From NCBI GenBank assembly GCA_016840085.1, contig JAEOTA010000071.1, forward strand, positions 1 through 10,758: 10,758 bases of DNA, in the 5' to 3' direction. Below the pieces are notes generated by a model. That model was given only the letters and a program-made list of their open reading frames with translations. It did no database searches and was not told where the DNA came from. This DNA comes from Promethearchaeota archaeon (GTDB lineage Archaea; Asgardarchaeota; Lokiarchaeia; Sigyniarchaeales; SOKP01). A program made the position numbers and the translations under genes. Below are positions 2,216 through 10,758 of the stretch, piece by piece; position 1 is the first letter of the stretch; each line of letters opens with the position of its first letter.

Positions 2216-3364
2216 TTAAAACCCTACTATATTCGAATGGGAAAAAGTCTTATCTGAATCTACAGCATCTTGTACATAAGGAGAGATAGGTCCATTTGCT
2301 AACACCATAATTTTTATCTTAGATCCCATATCTGGTTTGTTTTGAACTCCAAATTTTAATTGAGCTTCTTCTGGTATTCCATCTGTAATAGTAGAAATAA
2401 TCTTATCTACTTTGGATAAAGGTAAACTATGATCACCGGTAACTGACACAATACATCTCTGAACTTGACTTGTATCTGGTTTTAAAAGTGGATTATTCAA
2501 TGCTAACTTTGATTTTTCTACTAAATCCGAATCATCTCCTATTGATTCTGCAATGCCAACTAGACCTGTCGGATAATTTTCTCGCTTTACAAATATTCTT
2601 TTCACATCAGCAAAATCAATATTAACTAAACCACAATTATTAATTAAATTAACTACTTCTCCAATATTTCTAATTAAAACTTCATCCATTATTTTAAATC
2701 CTGTTATCATTGGAATTTTACCGACAATTTCCAAAAGATTGTCATTAGGAATGGGTATGAGAAAATCAGAATTACTTGCGAGACTTCTAAGACCTTCTTT
2801 TGCTCTTACAGCTCGTTGAGTGCCTTCCGATTTAAAAGGAAGGGAACAAAAAGTAACAACGATAGCATTATTTCTTTTTGCCTCTTCAGCGATAATTGGA
2901 GCTGCTCCAGTCCCAGTACCTCCACCCAAACCACATGTTAAAAAGATTATATCAGCACTTAAAATTTCTGCCAATCTTTTTTTATCTTCTAAAGCAGCTT
3001 CTGCACCTACACTAGGGTCATTTCCTGAGCCTAATCCATTACATCTTTCTTTTCCAATTAAGATTTTATGTTTTGCATTCGAATAGTATAAATCATGGGC
3101 ATCAGTATTTATATTTACAGTTTCAGCATTATTTATACCCATGTCCTCTAATCGTGATATTGTATTATTCCCAGCACCTCCAACTCCAACAACCAATGAT
3201 TTAATTTTTAAAACTTTTAATAAATCTGCTAAATAGCTATCATCATCGCATTTTGGATTTGAATTAGGATTTCGATTAGCATCAGCTATTTCATTGAATC
3301 TTTCCCTCACTGATGATCGATTTTTAGCTAATTTTGCTAAATCAAAAAGTTCATCAACACTCAT
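2216..3364 (-). CDS. ftsZ: Cell division GTPase FtsZ (archaeal FtsZ1-like)
   Basis: Contains VVGVGGAGNNTI, NTD, GLGSGNDP, the tubulin signature GLGGGTGTG, PFKSEG..R, IPND and an intact T7 loop GLVNIDFADV. The N-terminal DDDSYLADLL helix resembles archaeal FtsZ1. Confidence 0.97.
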   Translation of the reverse strand: MSVDELFDLAKLAKNRSSVRERFNEIADANRNPNSNPKCDDDSYLADLLKVLKIKSLVVGVGGAGNNTISRLEDMGINNAETVNINTDAHDLYYSNAKHKILIGKERCNGLGSGNDPSVGAEAALEDKKRLAEILSADIIFLTCGLGGGTGTGAAPIIAEEAKRNNAIVVTFCSLPFKSEGTQRAVRAKEGLRSLASNSDFLIPIPNDNLLEIVGKIPMITGFKIMDEVLIRNIGEVVNLINNCGLVNIDFADVKRIFVKRENYPTGLVGIAESIGDDSDLVEKSKLALNNPLLKPDTSQVQRCIVSVTGDHSLPLSKVDKIISTITDGIPEEAQLKFGVQNKPDMGSKIKIMVLANGPISPYVQDAVDSDKTFSHSNIVGF

Positions 3365-4514: not shown

Positions 4515-5825
4515 TTATATATCAAGAATTATTTGACCATATGTACCTCCTCCTCCGGGAGTATACTTGATTTCGTTATTTCTAACTGCTTTTATGATTG
4601 ATGCTATATCTGGATTGAAATCTTGAATTTTATTAATCGGATTATCAAATAATATTTCAAATTCAGTCCCAACTTCTTTAATTATCTTTCCATATTCATT
4701 TAGGACGGATTTACTTGTTTTACTTTTTATTCCTTTCACTGAACGGATTATATCTATTAACGGCACGGCATTTATATAAGGTGGCCTATGATCTGGATGC
4801 TTTGGTTTCTCATGTTGCGAAATTGTTTCAATACGTTCGCTTACTCCTAATTTAATTTTGAAACTTCTATTTTTTTCTTCTTTACAGGCTGGACAATTCA
4901 TCTTATTTTTAGAAACTTGTTCTAAATAGTCCAATCTAGAAGAGTTGGGATCATTCACATAGTATATCACAAAATTATCTGTTATTGTATATTGATTAAA
5001 GATTGCATTTACTTTTTTCTTCGTTTTTCTAAATAATATTCTTCTCCTACATTTATAACAAAACATATTATAGTATTTCCCAAGCTTAGGATGAAGACCT
5101 ACATTTAGTATTATTTTTCTACTCTCTTTTCTTTTTATCGCTAACATAATTTCTTCATAAGATGGATTATCAATATCGAATCTATTAAATTCTCTACCTA
5201 AAGAACGAGGATCTTGTGAATGTGCATCGCTATTACTTAAAAAAGATACATTTTTCAAACATTCCAGTCTATCTGCTAAATTAGTATTAGCAGAAAGCCC
5301 TAATTCAATGAAATTTATCTTATTAACGGCATCAGCATAACATCCTTCAAGTGTTTTGAATTTATTCTGTCTAAATATAGCTTTAAAAGGAGTAAAAGCA
5401 TGAGCAGGTCCAATTAAAGCACCAGCATCTGTAATTATATCAACTAATTCAGGAGGGGATAAATTTACTCTTGGTCGCCCGCCCCATTCATTTAAAATAT
5501 TTTTAGAATAAGGCTCTAATTTTTTTTGGATTTCTCTAACCATTTCAAAATTCTCGAAGAAAACAACTTCATGCACGCTTTCATTATCTTCTATCTCAGT
5601 TTGGAGGATAAAATAAACATCCTTATAAATATAAGATCCATCTTTTGCTTTCTTGAGTTTGTTTTCAAGGTATTTTAGCCAATCTGGTTGTAGAACATCA
5701 CCTGTAGCTAAGATGTTTAATCCTTTTTTCTTACAAGTTTCAATCATCGTATCTAAATTTAATGATTTCGACACTCCAATAGAATGTGGAGAATGAATAT
5801 GTAAATCAGCGTTGAAAACATCCAT
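4515..5825 (-). CDS. Endonuclease Q-like PHP-domain protein (TIGR00375 family)
   Basis: ADLHIHSPHS, TGD, VH, GRP, GPAHAFTP, ELGLSA, SNSDAHS, LGREFN, LGKYY, Zn ligands CYKC/CPAC, GVSERI, HPDHRPPY and C-terminal PGGGGTYG occur in the order known for archaeal EndoQ. Confidence 0.9.
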   Translation of the reverse strand: MDVFNADLHIHSPHSIGVSKSLNLDTMIETCKKKGLNILATGDVLQPDWLKYLENKLKKAKDGSYIYKDVYFILQTEIEDNESVHEVVFFENFEMVREIQKKLEPYSKNILNEWGGRPRVNLSPPELVDIITDAGALIGPAHAFTPFKAIFRQNKFKTLEGCYADAVNKINFIELGLSANTNLADRLECLKNVSFLSNSDAHSQDPRSLGREFNRFDIDNPSYEEIMLAIKRKESRKIILNVGLHPKLGKYYNMFCYKCRRRILFRKTKKKVNAIFNQYTITDNFVIYYVNDPNSSRLDYLEQVSKNKMNCPACKEEKNRSFKIKLGVSERIETISQHEKPKHPDHRPPYINAVPLIDIIRSVKGIKSKTSKSVLNEYGKIIKEVGTEFEILFDNPINKIQDFNPDIASIIKAVRNNEIKYTPGGGGTYGQIILDI

Positions 5826-5884: not shown

Positions 5885-6934
5885 TTAATTTACTATTATC
5901 ATTTTATCTTTCGTTTGATCAGTTAATAACACGCGGTAATATTCTAATTCATTTTTGTAATTTACTTTTTCTAATTTTCCTTCAACAAAAACTGTTTCTC
6001 CTTCCTTAGCATGCTCACAAAAACGTGCTCTAAAGGAATTTACTTCCAGAATATCTTTGAAATTAATTTCATTTAAAAGGAAATTTTTTCCTAAGATTTT
6101 TGAAGTATTAATTTTATAAGAACAAGGAGTAAATATAGAATCTTTGGAATCAAGGATTAAAGCTTTGAGTTTAACTCTTCCACAATTTTTAAATTTGTAA
6201 TCATAATATGTTCCTTGCCAGTCATTAGGGCTTTTTATGTATCTTATAAAAAAGTCAATTCCATCAAATTTACCTTGATGTAGCTTCCTTTGTTCACTTC
6301 TAATATAATCATTAAAAGTAATATCTGAGCCTCCAAATCTCCAGTTATAATGAGATTCGTACTCCTTAGAATTATACTTCCTACATTTATTAGATTCTTT
6401 AAAAATTTTGATCAATTTTTTTTGGAATTTTAGACCCCTTTCAGTACCATTTATTATGATATCAATATCTGAATCATCTTTGTCTAAACCTACCATTAAA
6501 GAACCAGAAATACCTATTGAGTTTTCAGGAATATCTCCTTTGCTGATAAATAAATCACATAATCTTTTGGAACAATTCTCTATTTGTGTTAGATTAGCCT
6601 TTTCATTTAGACCGTTGAAGTATTCTCTAGGGGTATAAATTTTTTTAATATCTTCATTTCTAACTGTTTGTAATTCCATATCTAAATCTTTGGAGGAATA
6701 TAAGTATTTAGGAAATTTTTCTCTTAAAATAGAGAATCTCTCACTAAGATCATATACTTTTTTAAAAAATATTCCATCTTTAATTCTATCGCCATCAGGA
6801 TGAGGATAAAATCTTAAAAAGCAGATTTTTCTTTCATTTGGATGGTGTATCCCTTTAACATCAAAAAAGAGGTTATCTTTTTTTGTTTCAATATAATCTC
6901 CTTCTATTCCCTCAGGAATGTTCAAAACGCTCAT
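5885..6934 (-). CDS. Predicted nucleotidyltransferase (Pol beta superfamily, COG1665-like)
   Basis: GISGSLMVGLDKDDSDIDIII carries the hG[GS]x9-13DhD motif. N-terminal FFDVKGIHHP..R...LRFYP and a C-terminal OB-like EGETVFVEGKLEKV segment fit this archaeal family. Confidence 0.8.
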   Translation of the reverse strand: MSVLNIPEGIEGDYIETKKDNLFFDVKGIHHPNERKICFLRFYPHPDGDRIKDGIFFKKVYDLSERFSILREKFPKYLYSSKDLDMELQTVRNEDIKKIYTPREYFNGLNEKANLTQIENCSKRLCDLFISKGDIPENSIGISGSLMVGLDKDDSDIDIIINGTERGLKFQKKLIKIFKESNKCRKYNSKEYESHYNWRFGGSDITFNDYIRSEQRKLHQGKFDGIDFFIRYIKSPNDWQGTYYDYKFKNCGRVKLKALILDSKDSIFTPCSYKINTSKILGKNFLLNEINFKDILEVNSFRARFCEHAKEGETVFVEGKLEKVNYKNELEYYRVLLTDQTKDKMIIVN

Positions 6935-6945
6935 GTTATTGAAAA

Positions 6946-8082
6946 TTAATATTTGGAAGGAGTTTTAGTTTTAATTTGTGAGGGAGCCTTCGTTTTAATC
7001 TTTCTTAGTTCTCTTTCAAATTTTCTTTTTTCATTTAGAAATCTTTGTTTATCCTTTTCTAATTTTTCTCTCTCACGTTTAATAAAGTTTTTTTCTCTTT
7101 CTAAGTTTGTTTTTTCTTTTTCTAACTGTCTATATTCATTATTTAATTTTTTAAATTTTTCCTCTAAATTTGGAATTTTGCGAGTTAAGGAGTTATATTT
7201 ATTTTCGGCAGCAGGGACTTTTCTTTCTATTTCTTTTAATCTTGCTTCTTGTTGTCGTCTTCTTTTTTCCAAATTACTTACGTCGCTTTCTACTTTATCT
7301 TTATACTTTTTTAGATCTGCTTTTTTCTTATCAATTTCGCGAGTTTTTAGATCTAAGTCTTGTTTTTTATAACGTGTTTTTTCTCTTGCTTCTTTTAATT
7401 TTCTCTTTTCATCAGAAATTCGATTTTTTTCATCTGAAATCTCTCTCTTTAGGTTATTTATTTCCCTATTTAAGTTATCCCTTTCTTTAATTAAATCTTT
7501 AATTTCATTTCTTAAATCCATTAATTTATTTTCCAAATCATTAATAGTTCTGTTCAAAGCTTCTTCTCTTCTTTCCATTCCCGGAAATTTTGTTTTAATT
7601 TGCTTGATGCGGTCTTCTGTTATTGTTTTTTCCTTATCGAGTAATTTTTTCTCGTTACCAATATCTTCTCTGAGTTTATCTAATTTCTCTCGAAATCTTT
7701 CTAATTCAGCATTTTTTTGATCTAATTCATCATTTTTTCTTCTGATTTTATCTCTGAATTGTCGTTCTTTAGTAGCAAGTTGATTTTTATGTTGTTCAAT
7801 TTGATTTTTCGCTATTTTTAATTCATCCTGTAAGATATCCCTTTTTTCAAGAAGGTATTTAACTTCAAGTTCTTTTTCTTTTCTTTTTTTTTCAAGGTCT
7901 TCAATGTTGTCTTTATAATCTTGAAGCTGTTTAAGAACTTTTTCCCATTCACTCTTTTCTTTATCTAATTTGATTCTTTCTTTTTTTATTTTTTTTAGTA
8001 ACTTTTTATTAGAAAGTGTTTCAATTTCCTCATCAGGTGTTTTTTCTTGAATTTGATATTTGGGAAGAGGTTCATCATTCAT
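6946..8082 (-). CDS. Long Lys/Glu/Arg-rich coiled-coil protein of unknown function
   Basis: 378 aa, nearly continuous heptad pattern, with no ATPase motif, TM segment or signal peptide. Stops 11 nt before the nucleotidyltransferase start. Confidence 0.8.
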   Translation of the reverse strand: MNDEPLPKYQIQEKTPDEEIETLSNKKLLKKIKKERIKLDKEKSEWEKVLKQLQDYKDNIEDLEKKRKEKELEVKYLLEKRDILQDELKIAKNQIEQHKNQLATKERQFRDKIRRKNDELDQKNAELERFREKLDKLREDIGNEKKLLDKEKTITEDRIKQIKTKFPGMERREEALNRTINDLENKLMDLRNEIKDLIKERDNLNREINNLKREISDEKNRISDEKRKLKEAREKTRYKKQDLDLKTREIDKKKADLKKYKDKVESDVSNLEKRRRQQEARLKEIERKVPAAENKYNSLTRKIPNLEEKFKKLNNEYRQLEKEKTNLEREKNFIKREREKLEKDKQRFLNEKRKFERELRKIKTKAPSQIKTKTPSKY

Positions 8083-8299: not shown

Positions 8300-8689
8300 A
8301 TGGGATTTGATGATGAGTTTGATGAGGAATTTGATGAAGAATTAGACGAAGATTTGGATGAGGAATTAGATGAACCTTCTTCAAAGACACCAGAAGAAGT
8401 AGTTGAATCTAAAACTCCAGCCACTAGAATAGTTACTGAGGGGAATAAGATTTCCGTATACTTTATGTCGACTATTGGACCGGGTGAAAAAAAACAAAAA
8501 TTAAATGTAAATACAGGTAATAACGTGGGAGACGTTAAAGAAACGGTAGCAAATTTATTTGGATTAGATCCTGCTGATTTTCATTTATCATCAGGGGGAG
8601 TTACAATGGATGAGAGCTCAGTTTTAAAAGATTATAATATAAGTGATGGTGACGATATTCTTTTAATTCCAGCAAGTACAGCGGGTTAA
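8300..8689 (+). CDS. Ubiquitin-like (beta-grasp) protein with acidic N-terminal extension and C-terminal Ala-Gly (Ubl-A)
   Basis: The last 65 aa align without gaps to ubiquitin 12-76 with 15 identities by manual count (L15,V17,V26,K27,G35,P38,L43,G47,L56,D58,Y59,N60,I61,L69,G76), e.g. LKDYNI vs LSDYNI. About 50 aa of acidic, probably disordered N-tail. Confidence 0.88.
   Translation: MGFDDEFDEEFDEELDEDLDEELDEPSSKTPEEVVESKTPATRIVTEGNKISVYFMSTIGPGEKKQKLNVNTGNNVGDVKETVANLFGLDPADFHLSSGGVTMDESSVLKDYNISDGDDILLIPASTAG
8306..8377 (+). repeat. Six imperfect 12-bp coding tandem repeats
   Basis: tttgatgatgag/tttgatgaggaa/tttgatgaagaa/ttagacgaagat/ttggatgaggaa/ttagatgaacct encode FDDE FDEE FDEE LDED LDEE LDEP. 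Confidence 0.85.
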
Positions 8690-8738
8690 ATTCTTTTTTG
8701 ATTTAAAACAAACTATAATAAAACTACTTTATCTTTTT
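8690..8738. terminator. Probable T-tract termination zone between convergent genes
   Basis: ttctttttt directly follows the Ubl-A stop, and there are short T runs on the opposite strand. Archaeal oligo-T type, no hairpin. Confidence 0.35.
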
Positions 8739-9533
8739 TTAGCTTTTTTCTTTCCTTGAGGGAATTAGAGCAATTTCATCATCATCATCGATATCATAAT
8801 CTTTAATAAGTGAGTTTTCATCTAAAATTATCCCTCCAGAAGAAAGTAGAAAAGTTTTTAGTTCATAATCAAAGAATCTGCTAATCTTCTCTTTGATTAT
8901 ACCTGCTACTTCACTAGTATCAATTATAATTATTTTTGTTTTCTCACCAGGTTCAACGAGTGATCTAATATAAACTCGGATTTGATCTTCAATTTTAGTA
9001 GAGCTCAGAACTGGTGAATAAGTAATTTCTTCATCAGTTTTATCTTTATTTTTCAGCATCTTTTCTATTATTTTATTTCTCTCATTTGGATCAAAGTAAA
9101 GCATTTCCCGGATAAATAAAATCTTGTCCATTTTTGATAAGTCTAGTAAATTTATTTTATTTATTTCGTCTTGACTAAAAACTGAAAAAATATATTTTTC
9201 AATTATAGGTATATCCTTATAAGATTCATCTGATTCAACATAATCTTCAATTAAAGGCATGGCATCAATATAATCTTCAATAATATTAGCTGATTTCATT
9301 TTAATTGATATTGTTTCAGGTAAAATTTTTTTTTTATTTATTTTCTCATCCCAAATACCTTTAGAATGTATAACTGTATATACAGTACTAGTAGAGAGTA
9401 ATGCAACACTACCTATAGTTAGAATGAGAAATATTGAATTATTTTCTATGCGAAATAGGAAAAAAAAGGTATAAATCACGACGCAAAAAGTGTAAAGAGC
9501 AATAAGGCTTAAAATTCTATTTTTTTTCCTCAT
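8739..9533 (-). CDS. Two-TM membrane protein with C-terminal ubiquitin-like domain lacking the terminal Gly (Ubl-M)
   Basis: Basic N-terminus MRKKNR, two hydrophobic segments (about aa 7-27 and 34-55) and a helical middle domain. The last 80 aa (8739-8981) align ungapped to the Ubl-A domain at 32/79 identities (PGEK, LSSGG, DE, KDY, LIP). Ends SRKEKS. Confidence 0.85.
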   Translation of the reverse strand: MRKKNRILSLIALYTFCVVIYTFFFLFRIENNSIFLILTIGSVALLSTSTVYTVIHSKGIWDEKINKKKILPETISIKMKSANIIEDYIDAMPLIEDYVESDESYKDIPIIEKYIFSVFSQDEINKINLLDLSKMDKILFIREMLYFDPNERNKIIEKMLKNKDKTDEEITYSPVLSSTKIEDQIRVYIRSLVEPGEKTKIIIIDTSEVAGIIKEKISRFFDYELKTFLLSSGGIILDENSLIKDYDIDDDDEIALIPSRKEKS

Positions 9534-9618
9534 GATTTTTTAATTAGATCATTTTCTGAATTTAAAATATATAATTTAAAATTTAAATGGGATTGGAATG
9601 AATATGAAGTTTTTATAC

Positions 9619-10290
9619 TCATACACCTTGAATTAATTTTCTAACCTTTGTATATTTCTTTGTGTTAAATATGAATAATTTTCTTTTATTATCTTTTTCA
9701 ATTTTTACTAAATTCAGATCTTTTAAGATATCTAAATATTTTTTAATCGTATTATGATTCTTTTTTAAACCAGCCGCTATTTCTGTAATTTTTAATGCTT
9801 TGTTTTCTTGCTTCATAAAATCAATTATTTTTTGAAGGATTTTTTTCTTTAAATAATAGTATAACTCGTCAAACTTAGGATTTGAATCAAATTTGAAGAA
9901 AATTCTATGATTGTTTATTTGTTTTGATCTAACAAATTGGAATTTTTCTAAACATGATAAATGCCATAAAGCTTGATTACTTCCGATATTTAGAGTATTC
10001 ATTATTTCATTAATATTTGAGGGATTCTTCTTAATGTAATTAAAAATCTCATTTCTTTTTGGATGTTCGATAATATTATTTTTCATTAATCTTGTACCAG
10101 GGATAATAACACGCTGTTTAATTAAATCCTTTAAGATTAACTCTATTCGATTCTCATTTATATTAGGATTGTATCTCACTCTATTATTTATAAATGATAT
10201 AATTTCTCTCAATGAAAAGAAGGTCTTTTTCGTTAAATACTCTTCTACTAATTCAAGAACAACTGATTCTGCATTATCCAGAGAACTCAT
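9619..10290 (-). CDS. Multi-winged-helix transcriptional regulator (ArsR-like repeats, COG3398-like)
   Basis: Two clear wHTH units (HPKRNEIFNYIKKNP..INEIMNTLNI...ALWHLSCLEKFQFV and KIIDFMKQ...ITEIAAGLKKNHNTIKKYLDILKDLNLV) and a probable third N-terminal one (FSLREIISFI...IELILKDLIKQRVI). Confidence 0.85.
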   Translation of the reverse strand: MSSLDNAESVVLELVEEYLTKKTFFSLREIISFINNRVRYNPNINENRIELILKDLIKQRVIIPGTRLMKNNIIEHPKRNEIFNYIKKNPSNINEIMNTLNIGSNQALWHLSCLEKFQFVRSKQINNHRIFFKFDSNPKFDELYYYLKKKILQKIIDFMKQENKALKITEIAAGLKKNHNTIKKYLDILKDLNLVKIEKDNKRKLFIFNTKKYTKVRKLIQGV

Positions 10291-10445
10291 AAGCCTATAC
10301 TTTTATTGCGTTGAAATTTATGGTCTTGTAAATTTGTATTCTCTCTAAAACAACATTTTTTGATTTATATATATTAATAGGCATCCATACAATTTATAAT
10401 ATCATTTCTTTCGCCTCCTACCATATTCTTTTACATTTTAAAAAA

Positions 10446-10473
10446 TGGCTTGAAAAACTTCAAAATCATGCCA
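10446..10473. promoter_or_regulatory. Candidate operator: imperfect inverted repeat tggcttga-N12-tcatgcca
   Basis: 8-bp arms with one mismatch, relatively GC-rich, in the divergent intergenic region between the wHTH gene and Ubl-B, directly before an aagggttttattatat TATA-like element. Confidence 0.3.
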
Positions 10474-10563
10474 AAGGGTTTTATTATATCTTTTTAATGC
10501 GATTTTATTAAGTAAAAAAAAATAGAACAAAATAAAAAATAACAGAAAAAAGAAGTGTTTTGA

Positions 10564-10758
10564 ATGAGTTTTGATGAATTTGATGAGGATTTAGGTGGGG
10601 AGGAACCTTTAAAATCTAAAACTCCCGCTACTAAGACCCCTTCCGCAGGAAAAAAACTTACTTTATATTTCATGTCAACGATTGGTCCTGGTGAAAAAAA
10701 GGAAAAATTAACAGTTAATGACAGCAATCAGGTAAGAGATATTAAACAAACTTTAGGC
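10564..10758 (+). CDS. Second ubiquitin-like protein, paralog of Ubl-A (Ubl-B), truncated by the window end
   Basis: Not in the ORF track. Manual translation: MSFDEFDEDLGGEEPLKSKTPATKTPSAGKKLTLYFMSTIGPGEKKEKLTVNDSNQVRDIKQTLG. 29/48 identical to Ubl-A from SKTPAT on, including an identical YFMSTIGPGEKK. Confidence 0.9.
   Translation, partial: MSFDEFDEDLGGEEPLKSKTPATKTPSAGKKLTLYFMSTIGPGEKKEKLTVNDSNQVRDIKQTLG

Follow-up and report, generated by a model that had tools for sequence, protein, structure and literature searches.

The window analysed here is the entire contig C67 (10758 nt; JAEOTA010000071.1, assembly GCA_016840085.1) of a 4.68-Mb Lokiarchaeial genome whose relatives belong to Lokiarchaeia/Promethearchaeota. 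Its end is occupied by four consecutive genes that encode a free ubiquitin-like protein (Ubl-A), a fusion of transmembrane (TM) helices to a Ubl domain (TM-Ubl), a regulator with several winged helix-turn-helix (wHTH) domains, and the beginning of a second free Ubl (Ubl-B). A first-pass annotation made from the nucleotide letters had located these four open reading frames (ORFs) correctly, and the motifs by which it grouped them are present as described, with PGEK in all three Ubl domains and LSSGG, KDY and LIP in both complete copies. The relationship among the three domains is far above chance, as a phmmer comparison of Ubl-A with the whole genome recovers TM-Ubl (E 2e-15) and the Ubl-B fragment (E 2e-10). 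Public run contigs agree with most of the window with zero differences, and a 219-nt metatranscriptome contig spans the Ubl-B start, too weak a signal to be used as expression evidence.

Table 1. Features of the analysed window; coordinates refer to the 10758-nt contig (pLDDT, predicted local distance difference test).
Feature	Position	Strand	Description
Ubl-A, 129 aa	8300..8689	+	acidic N-tail of ~47 aa, beta-grasp, C-terminal PASTAG; model pLDDT 92
TM-Ubl, 264 aa	8739..9533	-	two TM helices, cytoplasmic helical anchor domain, Ubl ending PSRKEKS
Ubl domain of TM-Ubl	8757..8987	-	long-branched paralogue of the modifiers
Middle helical domain of TM-Ubl (res. 84-172)	9018..9284	-	predicted wHTH-binding anchor
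Two TM helices of TM-Ubl (res. 7-25, 33-51)	9381..9515	-	basic flanks, no ectodomain
Candidate operator copy 2 (ACTTCA-N3-TCATTCCAA)	9593..9610	-	~70 bp upstream of TM-Ubl gene
Multi-wHTH regulator, 223 aa	9619..10290	-	N-terminal docking domain and two ArsR/SdpR-like HTH domains
Candidate operator copy 1	10457..10474	+	inside conserved 44-bp block 10453-10496
Ubl-B, 5' 65 codons	10564..10758	+	truncated by contig end; heads operon in relatives
Coiled-coil protein	6946..8082	-	conserved divergent neighbour of operon Ubl across Lokiarchaeia

The cluster had been described as fitting neither of the known archaeal types, the ubiquitin operons or the sulfur-carrier-like proteins. This proved wrong, as the window covers the upstream half of an operon of the ubiquitin type (Ubl/E1/E2/JAMM/RING). 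In a genome of the same genus, a 94% identical Ubl-B is followed by genes for an activating enzyme (E1, ThiF), a conjugating enzyme (E2, UQ_con), a JAMM protease and a membrane protein that carries a RING-like domain at its C-terminus. Among 80 loci collected by E2 likeness with an E2 alignment as query, 52 have the exact order coiled-coil, Ubl-A, TM-Ubl, wHTH, Ubl-B, E1, E2, JAMM and TM-RING, and the remaining 28 are mostly cut or slightly rearranged; conserved synteny of the Ubls with the wHTH and TM genes is thereby upheld. The core order Ubl-E1-E2-JAMM-RING is also found in distant Asgard families and in the cultured Lokiarchaeum ossiferum. That no conjugation enzyme lies in the window holds for the letters as read, owing only to the contig end at position 10758, and a stand-alone module devoid of enzymes is rejected as an effect of that end, the enzymes being carried by the relatives' loci. 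Reading beyond position 10758 yields all four enzyme genes in relatives and, in the genome itself, only the JAMM and RING genes on contig C13, which opens within the former; the operon's E1 and E2 are unassembled there and most likely fall in the gap between C67 and C13. End-overlap comparison of C67 with the other contigs matched only paralogous copies on contig C18, and the run contigs lacked a continuation.

The enzymes encoded in relatives retain their catalytic signatures. E1 has an invariant GxGxxG motif, a zinc site (C179/C182/C324/C327) and a cysteine, C196, aligned with the catalytic Cys of UBA3, which is also the nearest solved structure (E 2e-53, versus 5e-26 for UBA5); by the author's reading of the alignment, an invariant Tyr occupies the position of the UBA3 Arg190 gate. 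In E2, which matches UQ_con at E 5e-26, H82-P83-N84 and C99 are invariant in 27 sequences, and JAMM, including the copy on C13, has invariant E123, H182, H184, S192 and D195. The RING protein is a multi-pass membrane protein with the RING at its C-terminus, where seven Cys/His residues and a Trp are invariant and a Glu occupies the sixth zinc-ligand position (C4-H-E-C2); RING family matches are weak and are obtained for 8-11 of 27 members. In distant Asgard lineages (L055:3168, L057:4921, L058:10241), the RING gene is followed by that of a second multi-pass protein, which lacks a RING and is kin to the RING protein's TM part.

Structure prediction and fold searches place both Ubl-A and the Ubl domain of TM-Ubl among ubiquitin-type beta-grasps, in agreement with the initial assignment. 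Residues 45-129 of Ubl-A, the part modelled as a beta-grasp at pLDDT 92, resemble ISG15, ubiquitin and NEDD8 types (for ISG15, Z 14.4 and a root-mean-square deviation of 1.5 Å over 77 residues), the top Foldseek match being the ubiquitin of Caldiarchaeum subterraneum (E 2e-8) and the top fold rows comprising ubiquitin, ISG15, NEDD8 and Hub1 types. All 53 members of the family examined match Pfam ubiquitin, and a profile alignment pairs the last Gly of PASTAG with ubiquitin G76 and its Ala with G75. The S[TIV]AG end is kept in 133 of 133 free Ubls counted, with no C-terminal Gly-Gly, and 36 of them have unrelated tails beyond the Gly, as expected for pro-forms matured by JAMM; pro-ubiquitin of C. 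subterraneum is trimmed by Rpn11 (PMC5654768). The soluble Ubls had been said to end in Gly, which stands for Ubl-A, while the end of Ubl-B lies outside the window and is taken from the 94% identical orthologue ending in PASTAG. With their ubiquitin fold, S[TIV]AG end and operonic enzymes in relatives, the soluble copies look like modifiers, as had been proposed, and the sequences indicate that the system is ubiquitin-like in its working and that its tag is not a diglycine ubiquitin. The Ala-Gly Ubl is present in 123 of 301 genomes of the Asgard phylum, L. ossiferum among them.

Conjugation of Ubl-A and Ubl-B by the enzymes of the operon is very probable. E1 would adenylate the single terminal Gly and hand the Ubl to E2, the Ubl would be ligated to substrates, probably at the membrane via the RING protein, and JAMM would trim pro-tails and remove tags.

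Additional Ala-Gly Ubls occur outside the operon. Contig C18 of the same genome carries two orphan copies of the Ubl-B type (L001:1793-2128 and L001:16345-16680), each with the upstream 44-bp element; one is intact, a stop and a frameshift mark the other as a pseudogene, and B-type orphans are common in the genus. In seven loci, an Ala-Gly Ubl whose STAG end is intact or nearly so follows other domains in a fusion protein, namely a P-loop ATPase (HerA-like by eye), CDC48N-like plus vWA, Roadblock, longin-like and zinc-ribbon/coiled-coil domains (L065:10072-11814(-), L066:1910-3718(+), L037:9691-11448(-), L043:2213-3964(+), L052:7621-8454(-), L041:7557-8237(+) and L070:13770-14660(+)). Such fusions could be conjugatable, cargo-carrying tags.

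The core operon is of a known kind and at a known locus. Its E2 is Lokiarch_29330 (UniProt A0A0F8VF99), a near letter-for-letter match to a segment printed together with Heimdallarchaeial orthologues in the supplement of PMC9192718, and experiments on Loki ubiquitin have used another protein, Lokiarch_37670, which ends in Gly-Gly and is encoded elsewhere (PMC9192718). An orthologue of the latter is present in the genome studied here (C25:6155-5895(-)), with a Gly-Gly end and a one-residue pro-tail, away from the operon, which suggests two parallel Ubl systems in one cell. On contig C78 there is a second E1/E2 pair; its E2, of the Lokiarch_10330 type (L053:6460-7010), has an insertion of ~30 nt that brings an in-frame stop, and its E1 adjoins a transposase-like ORF. 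Spang et al. are said to have listed the E1, JAB and two Ubl genes of this cluster in 2015; the E1 could not be matched to accession KKK43157, and a text search by locus tag gave nothing. General descriptions of Asgard ubiquitin gene neighbourhoods exist in the literature. In the accessible literature, key subscription papers lying outside the search, no account was found of the Ala-Gly end, the membrane RING or the TM-Ubl/wHTH pair, nor anything on the control of Asgard ubiquitin operons.

The regulator encoded between TM-Ubl and Ubl-B had been called a triple wHTH protein. Domains 2 and 3 do match HTH families, and domain 1 is not upheld as a third wHTH, as a profile comparison found no likeness between it and the other two. 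The family matches are of the ArsR/SmtB/SdpR type, the match to the SdpR model itself being weak (E 7e-9, below the cut-off), and domain 3 is strongly basic. Multimer modelling, suggested in the first-pass annotation for several partners, was carried out with the author's own alignments for wHTH and the cytoplasmic part of TM-Ubl, since both genes always travel together, and it predicts that the two bind through the middle domain of TM-Ubl. The complex scores 0.78, versus 0.00 for the best of three controls, relative to a mark that 58 of 80 solved complexes and 2 of 110 mismatched pairs reach and that is only rough here because own alignments were used; the runs show at least 95% contact agreement, with partner pLDDT of at least 81. 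In the model, residues 85-181 of TM-Ubl form the interface, packing against domain 1 of wHTH and against the domain-2 recognition helix (103-118), while the Ubl domain is not involved and HTH-3 is left free. A sequence search of the PDB found no relative of either part of the complex.

Genomic linkage extends beyond the ubiquitin genes. In 40 loci where the anchor domain occurs without a Ubl, 3 are cut, and of the 37 informative ones 33 have an adjacent wHTH homologue and 4 do not (L165 counted by eye). Copy numbers of wHTH and anchor domains co-vary across 34 related genomes (rho 0.92, among kin that are not independent), and in the genome studied here a single anchor domain stands against a single full-length wHTH of this type. 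Among orthologues, interface residues of wHTH are more conserved than the rest (0.88 versus 0.77). Taken with this linkage, the model makes it quite likely that the anchor of TM-Ubl binds the wHTH regulator. TM-Ubl would thus act as a membrane anchor rather than a tag, its middle domain covering the recognition helix of HTH-2. The earlier proposal made the membrane copy a receptor, decoy or recruiter that shares a partner with the modifiers; the evidence points instead to wHTH as what it holds.

That TM-Ubl is itself not conjugatable, as its earlier casting in a non-tag role implied, agrees with the lack of the S[TIV]AG end in 62 of 62 orthologues counted. Both of its termini probably lie inside the cell, judging by the basic flanks of the TM helices. 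In a tree of the family's Ubls, TM-Ubl forms a clade on a long stem (the tree has few columns and unsettled bootstrap, and only the TM-Ubl and Ubl-B clades are used), and the protein is essentially limited to one Lokiarchaeial family. Its only Pfam match is ubiquitin, with the SdpI and DUF1648 domains not matched. The patch equivalent to L8/I44/V70 of ubiquitin is partly kept, and several Ubl surface residues that are invariant in the family are altered. Elsewhere, the anchor domain is the C-terminal cytoplasmic tail of single-pass surface proteins, several of which have beta-helix or beta-propeller ectodomains. Such proteins (L163-L203), with beta-helix, beta-propeller or unknown ectodomains, number up to nine per genome, and one full and one shortened wHTH gene often stand beside them. 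As for how the anchor domain folds, matches to the Ubl swamped a fold search with the whole protein, and searches of the Atlas, of the PDB and with longer homologues came back empty, which proves neither novelty nor absence. On the best reading, TM-Ubl comes from a receptor whose ectodomain was lost and to which a dead-end Ubl was added. The pair would then descend from a family-wide module of surface receptor plus wHTH through these two changes, and the outcome would be an apparently undescribed control switch derived from a cell-surface receptor family.

A conserved DNA element bears on what the regulator may control. Some 100 bp ahead of Ubl-B, a 44-bp block passes into a TATA-like box; the core of the block, ACTTCA-N3-TCATTCCAA, is present in two copies in the window, against a chance mean of 0.09. 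The 18-bp element is found upstream of Ubl-B in 68 of 68 loci and of TM-Ubl in 52 of 62, compared with 1 of 61 for Ubl-A and none for the wHTH, E1, E2, JAMM, RING and coiled-coil genes. A related motif is enriched in receptor/wHTH loci without a Ubl (15 matches versus 4.25 expected, mostly 16-111 bp upstream of genes) and stays at background in control loci (7 versus ~5.6 expected), which ties the element to the wHTH family and not to ubiquitin genes as such. The earlier suggestion that wHTH controls expression thus gains a conserved candidate operator before the Ubl-B and TM-Ubl genes, and it is reasonably likely that the regulator governs the Ubl-B operon together with its own anchor. Free wHTH would bind ACTTCA-N3-TCATTCCAA next to the TATA boxes of both the Ubl-B operon and the TM-Ubl gene; acting at the latter as well, it would close a feedback loop that leaves Ubl-A outside. 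A role as an SdpR-like repressor is slightly favoured over that of an activator because the site overlaps the position of the B-recognition element (BRE).

The reading favoured on the whole, held with moderate confidence, is an Ala-Gly tagging locus with a membrane-sequestered regulator of the SdpI/SdpR-like kind. Within it, the Ubl domain of TM-Ubl may speculatively serve as the sensor, a step for which the odds lean somewhat to the doubtful side: the domain would engage Ubl-binding factors (E1, JAMM or an AAA+/proteasome component), and the load on the tagging system would decide whether the regulator is held or released. A further and still more tentative proposal, more doubtful than probable, is that a Lokiarchaeial family possesses a receptor/multi-wHTH signalling module that is kinase-free and so far undescribed, and that one copy of it became an internal sensor when a dead-end modifier replaced the ectodomain, such that the state of the Ala-Gly system is reported to its own operon; if true, this would be a prokaryotic ubiquitin-homeostasis circuit.

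Several observations count against the favoured reading. E1 and E2 of the genome itself are unassembled, and with a Glu at the sixth zinc-ligand position the ligase activity of the RING protein is not assured. The genomes compared are kin, so the counts overstate independence, and the 80 loci were chosen by E2 likeness. The complex is a model that could mirror learned packing of HTH helices, and in distant wHTH paralogues the interface has no extra conservation over the rest (0.55 versus 0.54). In one sister genus, the element stands before TM-Ubl and was not found before the divergent Ubl, and it may be read by another factor.

It is also conceivable, if unlikely, that the TM-Ubl/wHTH complex is a constitutive membrane-tethered regulator or a receptor relic, in which the Ubl is a structural or stability tag and operon regulation is independent of Ubl load. 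The predicted interface does leave out the Ubl domain, one genome has a second TM/wHTH copy whose Ubl part is shortened (L168), and HTH-3, free in the model, could contact DNA while tethered. The Ubl domain of TM-Ubl is, however, well conserved after its long stem (mean 0.78, versus 0.68 for the anchor domain), which points to a selected new role. A less probable arrangement, and a decidedly unlikely one, is that the main role of TM-Ubl lies at the membrane, as a decoy, a receptor or a recruiter of the proteins with which the modifiers interact (E1, JAMM, RING or the proteasome), like HERP/Usa1 or TMUB in endoplasmic-reticulum-associated degradation (ERAD), with wHTH regulating independently. 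The Ubl fold, the retained part of the L8/I44/V70-equivalent patch and the multi-pass RING protein encoded in the operon would suit such a role, whereas the altered family-invariant surface residues do not, and the anchor domain, its pairing with wHTH in non-Ubl loci and the predicted complex would all be left unexplained.

Very unlikely is the possibility that wHTH is no transcription factor and instead serves membrane sorting as an ESCRT-II-like scaffold of tandem winged helices docked on TM-Ubl. Several Asgard lineages do have ubiquitin genes linked to ESCRT genes (PMC9192718), and both the tandem winged helices and the predicted docking on a membrane protein are in keeping with this; against it, the family matches are of the ArsR/SmtB/SdpR type with no ESCRT-II family listed, domain 3 is strongly basic, and the conserved DNA element tracks the wHTH family. 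Finally, the idea that the Ala-Gly Ubls are Asgard UFM1 homologues or sulfur carriers scarcely merits belief, since the single Gly, the UFM1-like IP-x4-G spacing and a report of Asgard Ufm1 homologues (PMC12962969) are outweighed by 0 of 53 members matching Pfam Ufm1 (PF03671) versus 53 of 53 matching ubiquitin, by the UBA3-like E1 with its Cys at the UBA3 position (E 2e-53, versus 5e-26 for UBA5), by a separate UFM1-like Asgard ORF that has no profile likeness to the family, and, as regards sulfur transfer, by the E2, JAMM and RING genes. UFM1 identity is thus unsupported by Pfam scans, genome search and profile comparison alike. PF03671 gave no match in the genome or its genus, though this model also misses most Asgard Ufm1-like genes, which leaves a small chance that the family coincides with the published Asgard set; UFM1 was absent from the top 50 fold rows for Ubl-A, an absence from that list only, and the Atlas feature matches on this question were all <0.9. 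The UFM1-like ORF (L162:1390-1701(+)) encodes 103 aa ending in IVPRDLLG plus a short tail, matches PF03671 weakly and is unrelated to the Ala-Gly family.

Among the neighbouring genes, that of the coiled-coil protein (6946-8082(-)) stays divergent to the operon Ubl even where TM-Ubl and wHTH are missing, and its product is a possible substrate or scaffold. Further upstream are genes for an FtsZ-family GTPase (2216-3364(-)), a PHP-domain protein (4515-5825(-)) and a nucleotidyltransferase-like protein (5885-6934(-)), whose order is kept in the members of the genus examined.

Asgard ubiquitin systems are central to the origin of eukaryotic ubiquitin signalling, and studies to date have used Gly-Gly tags. 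The locus described here supplies a second, widespread modifier with an Ala-Gly end and a membrane RING partner, as well as concrete candidates for a regulator, an operator and an anchor. The closest known operon is that of C. subterraneum (Ub, E1, E2, small RING and Rpn11; PMC5654768, PMC6043591), which shares the ubiquitin-type fold, UBA3-like E1, UBC E2, JAMM, RING and pro-tails after the Gly. It differs in that the present tag ends in Ala-Gly, has an acidic N-tail and comes as at least two paralogues, the RING is Glu-substituted and carried on a multi-pass membrane protein, and the TM-Ubl/wHTH pair is inserted. The ubiquitin cluster of Lokiarchaeum GC14_75 has the same E2, the published Lokiarch_29330, whereas its studied ubiquitin, Lokiarch_37670, ends in Gly-Gly and is encoded elsewhere. 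UFM1 shares the single-Gly end; unlike UFM1, the present Ubls have no match to that family, and their E1 and E2 are not UBA5/UFC1-like.

Sequestration of a regulator at the membrane is known from anti-sigma receptors (RsgI/SigI) and from Mlc/PtsG. Compared by description only, these systems resemble the present family in combining a single TM helix with an ectodomain that varies and a conserved domain on the cytoplasmic side, by which the cognate regulator encoded next door is, or is predicted to be, held; the partner here, in place of a sigma factor, is a multi-wHTH protein from an archaeon. In Bacillus subtilis, SdpI sequesters the co-encoded ArsR-type autorepressor SdpR at the membrane (PMC2910880). 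In both cases, the gene of the membrane protein lies downstream of that of the regulator, and wHTH matches SdpR weakly; however, no SdpI homology is seen, a cytoplasmic helical domain is predicted to do the binding, the regulator has an extra docking domain, and the membrane protein lacks an ectodomain and bears an appended Ubl, so the analogy is one of mechanism and not of membership. In eukaryotes, HERP/Usa1, TMUB and MUB/UBL3 likewise are membrane proteins that bear a non-conjugated Ubl and stand close to a membrane-bound RING ligase, a likeness that would be convergent, given that TM-Ubl arose within one Lokiarchaeial family.

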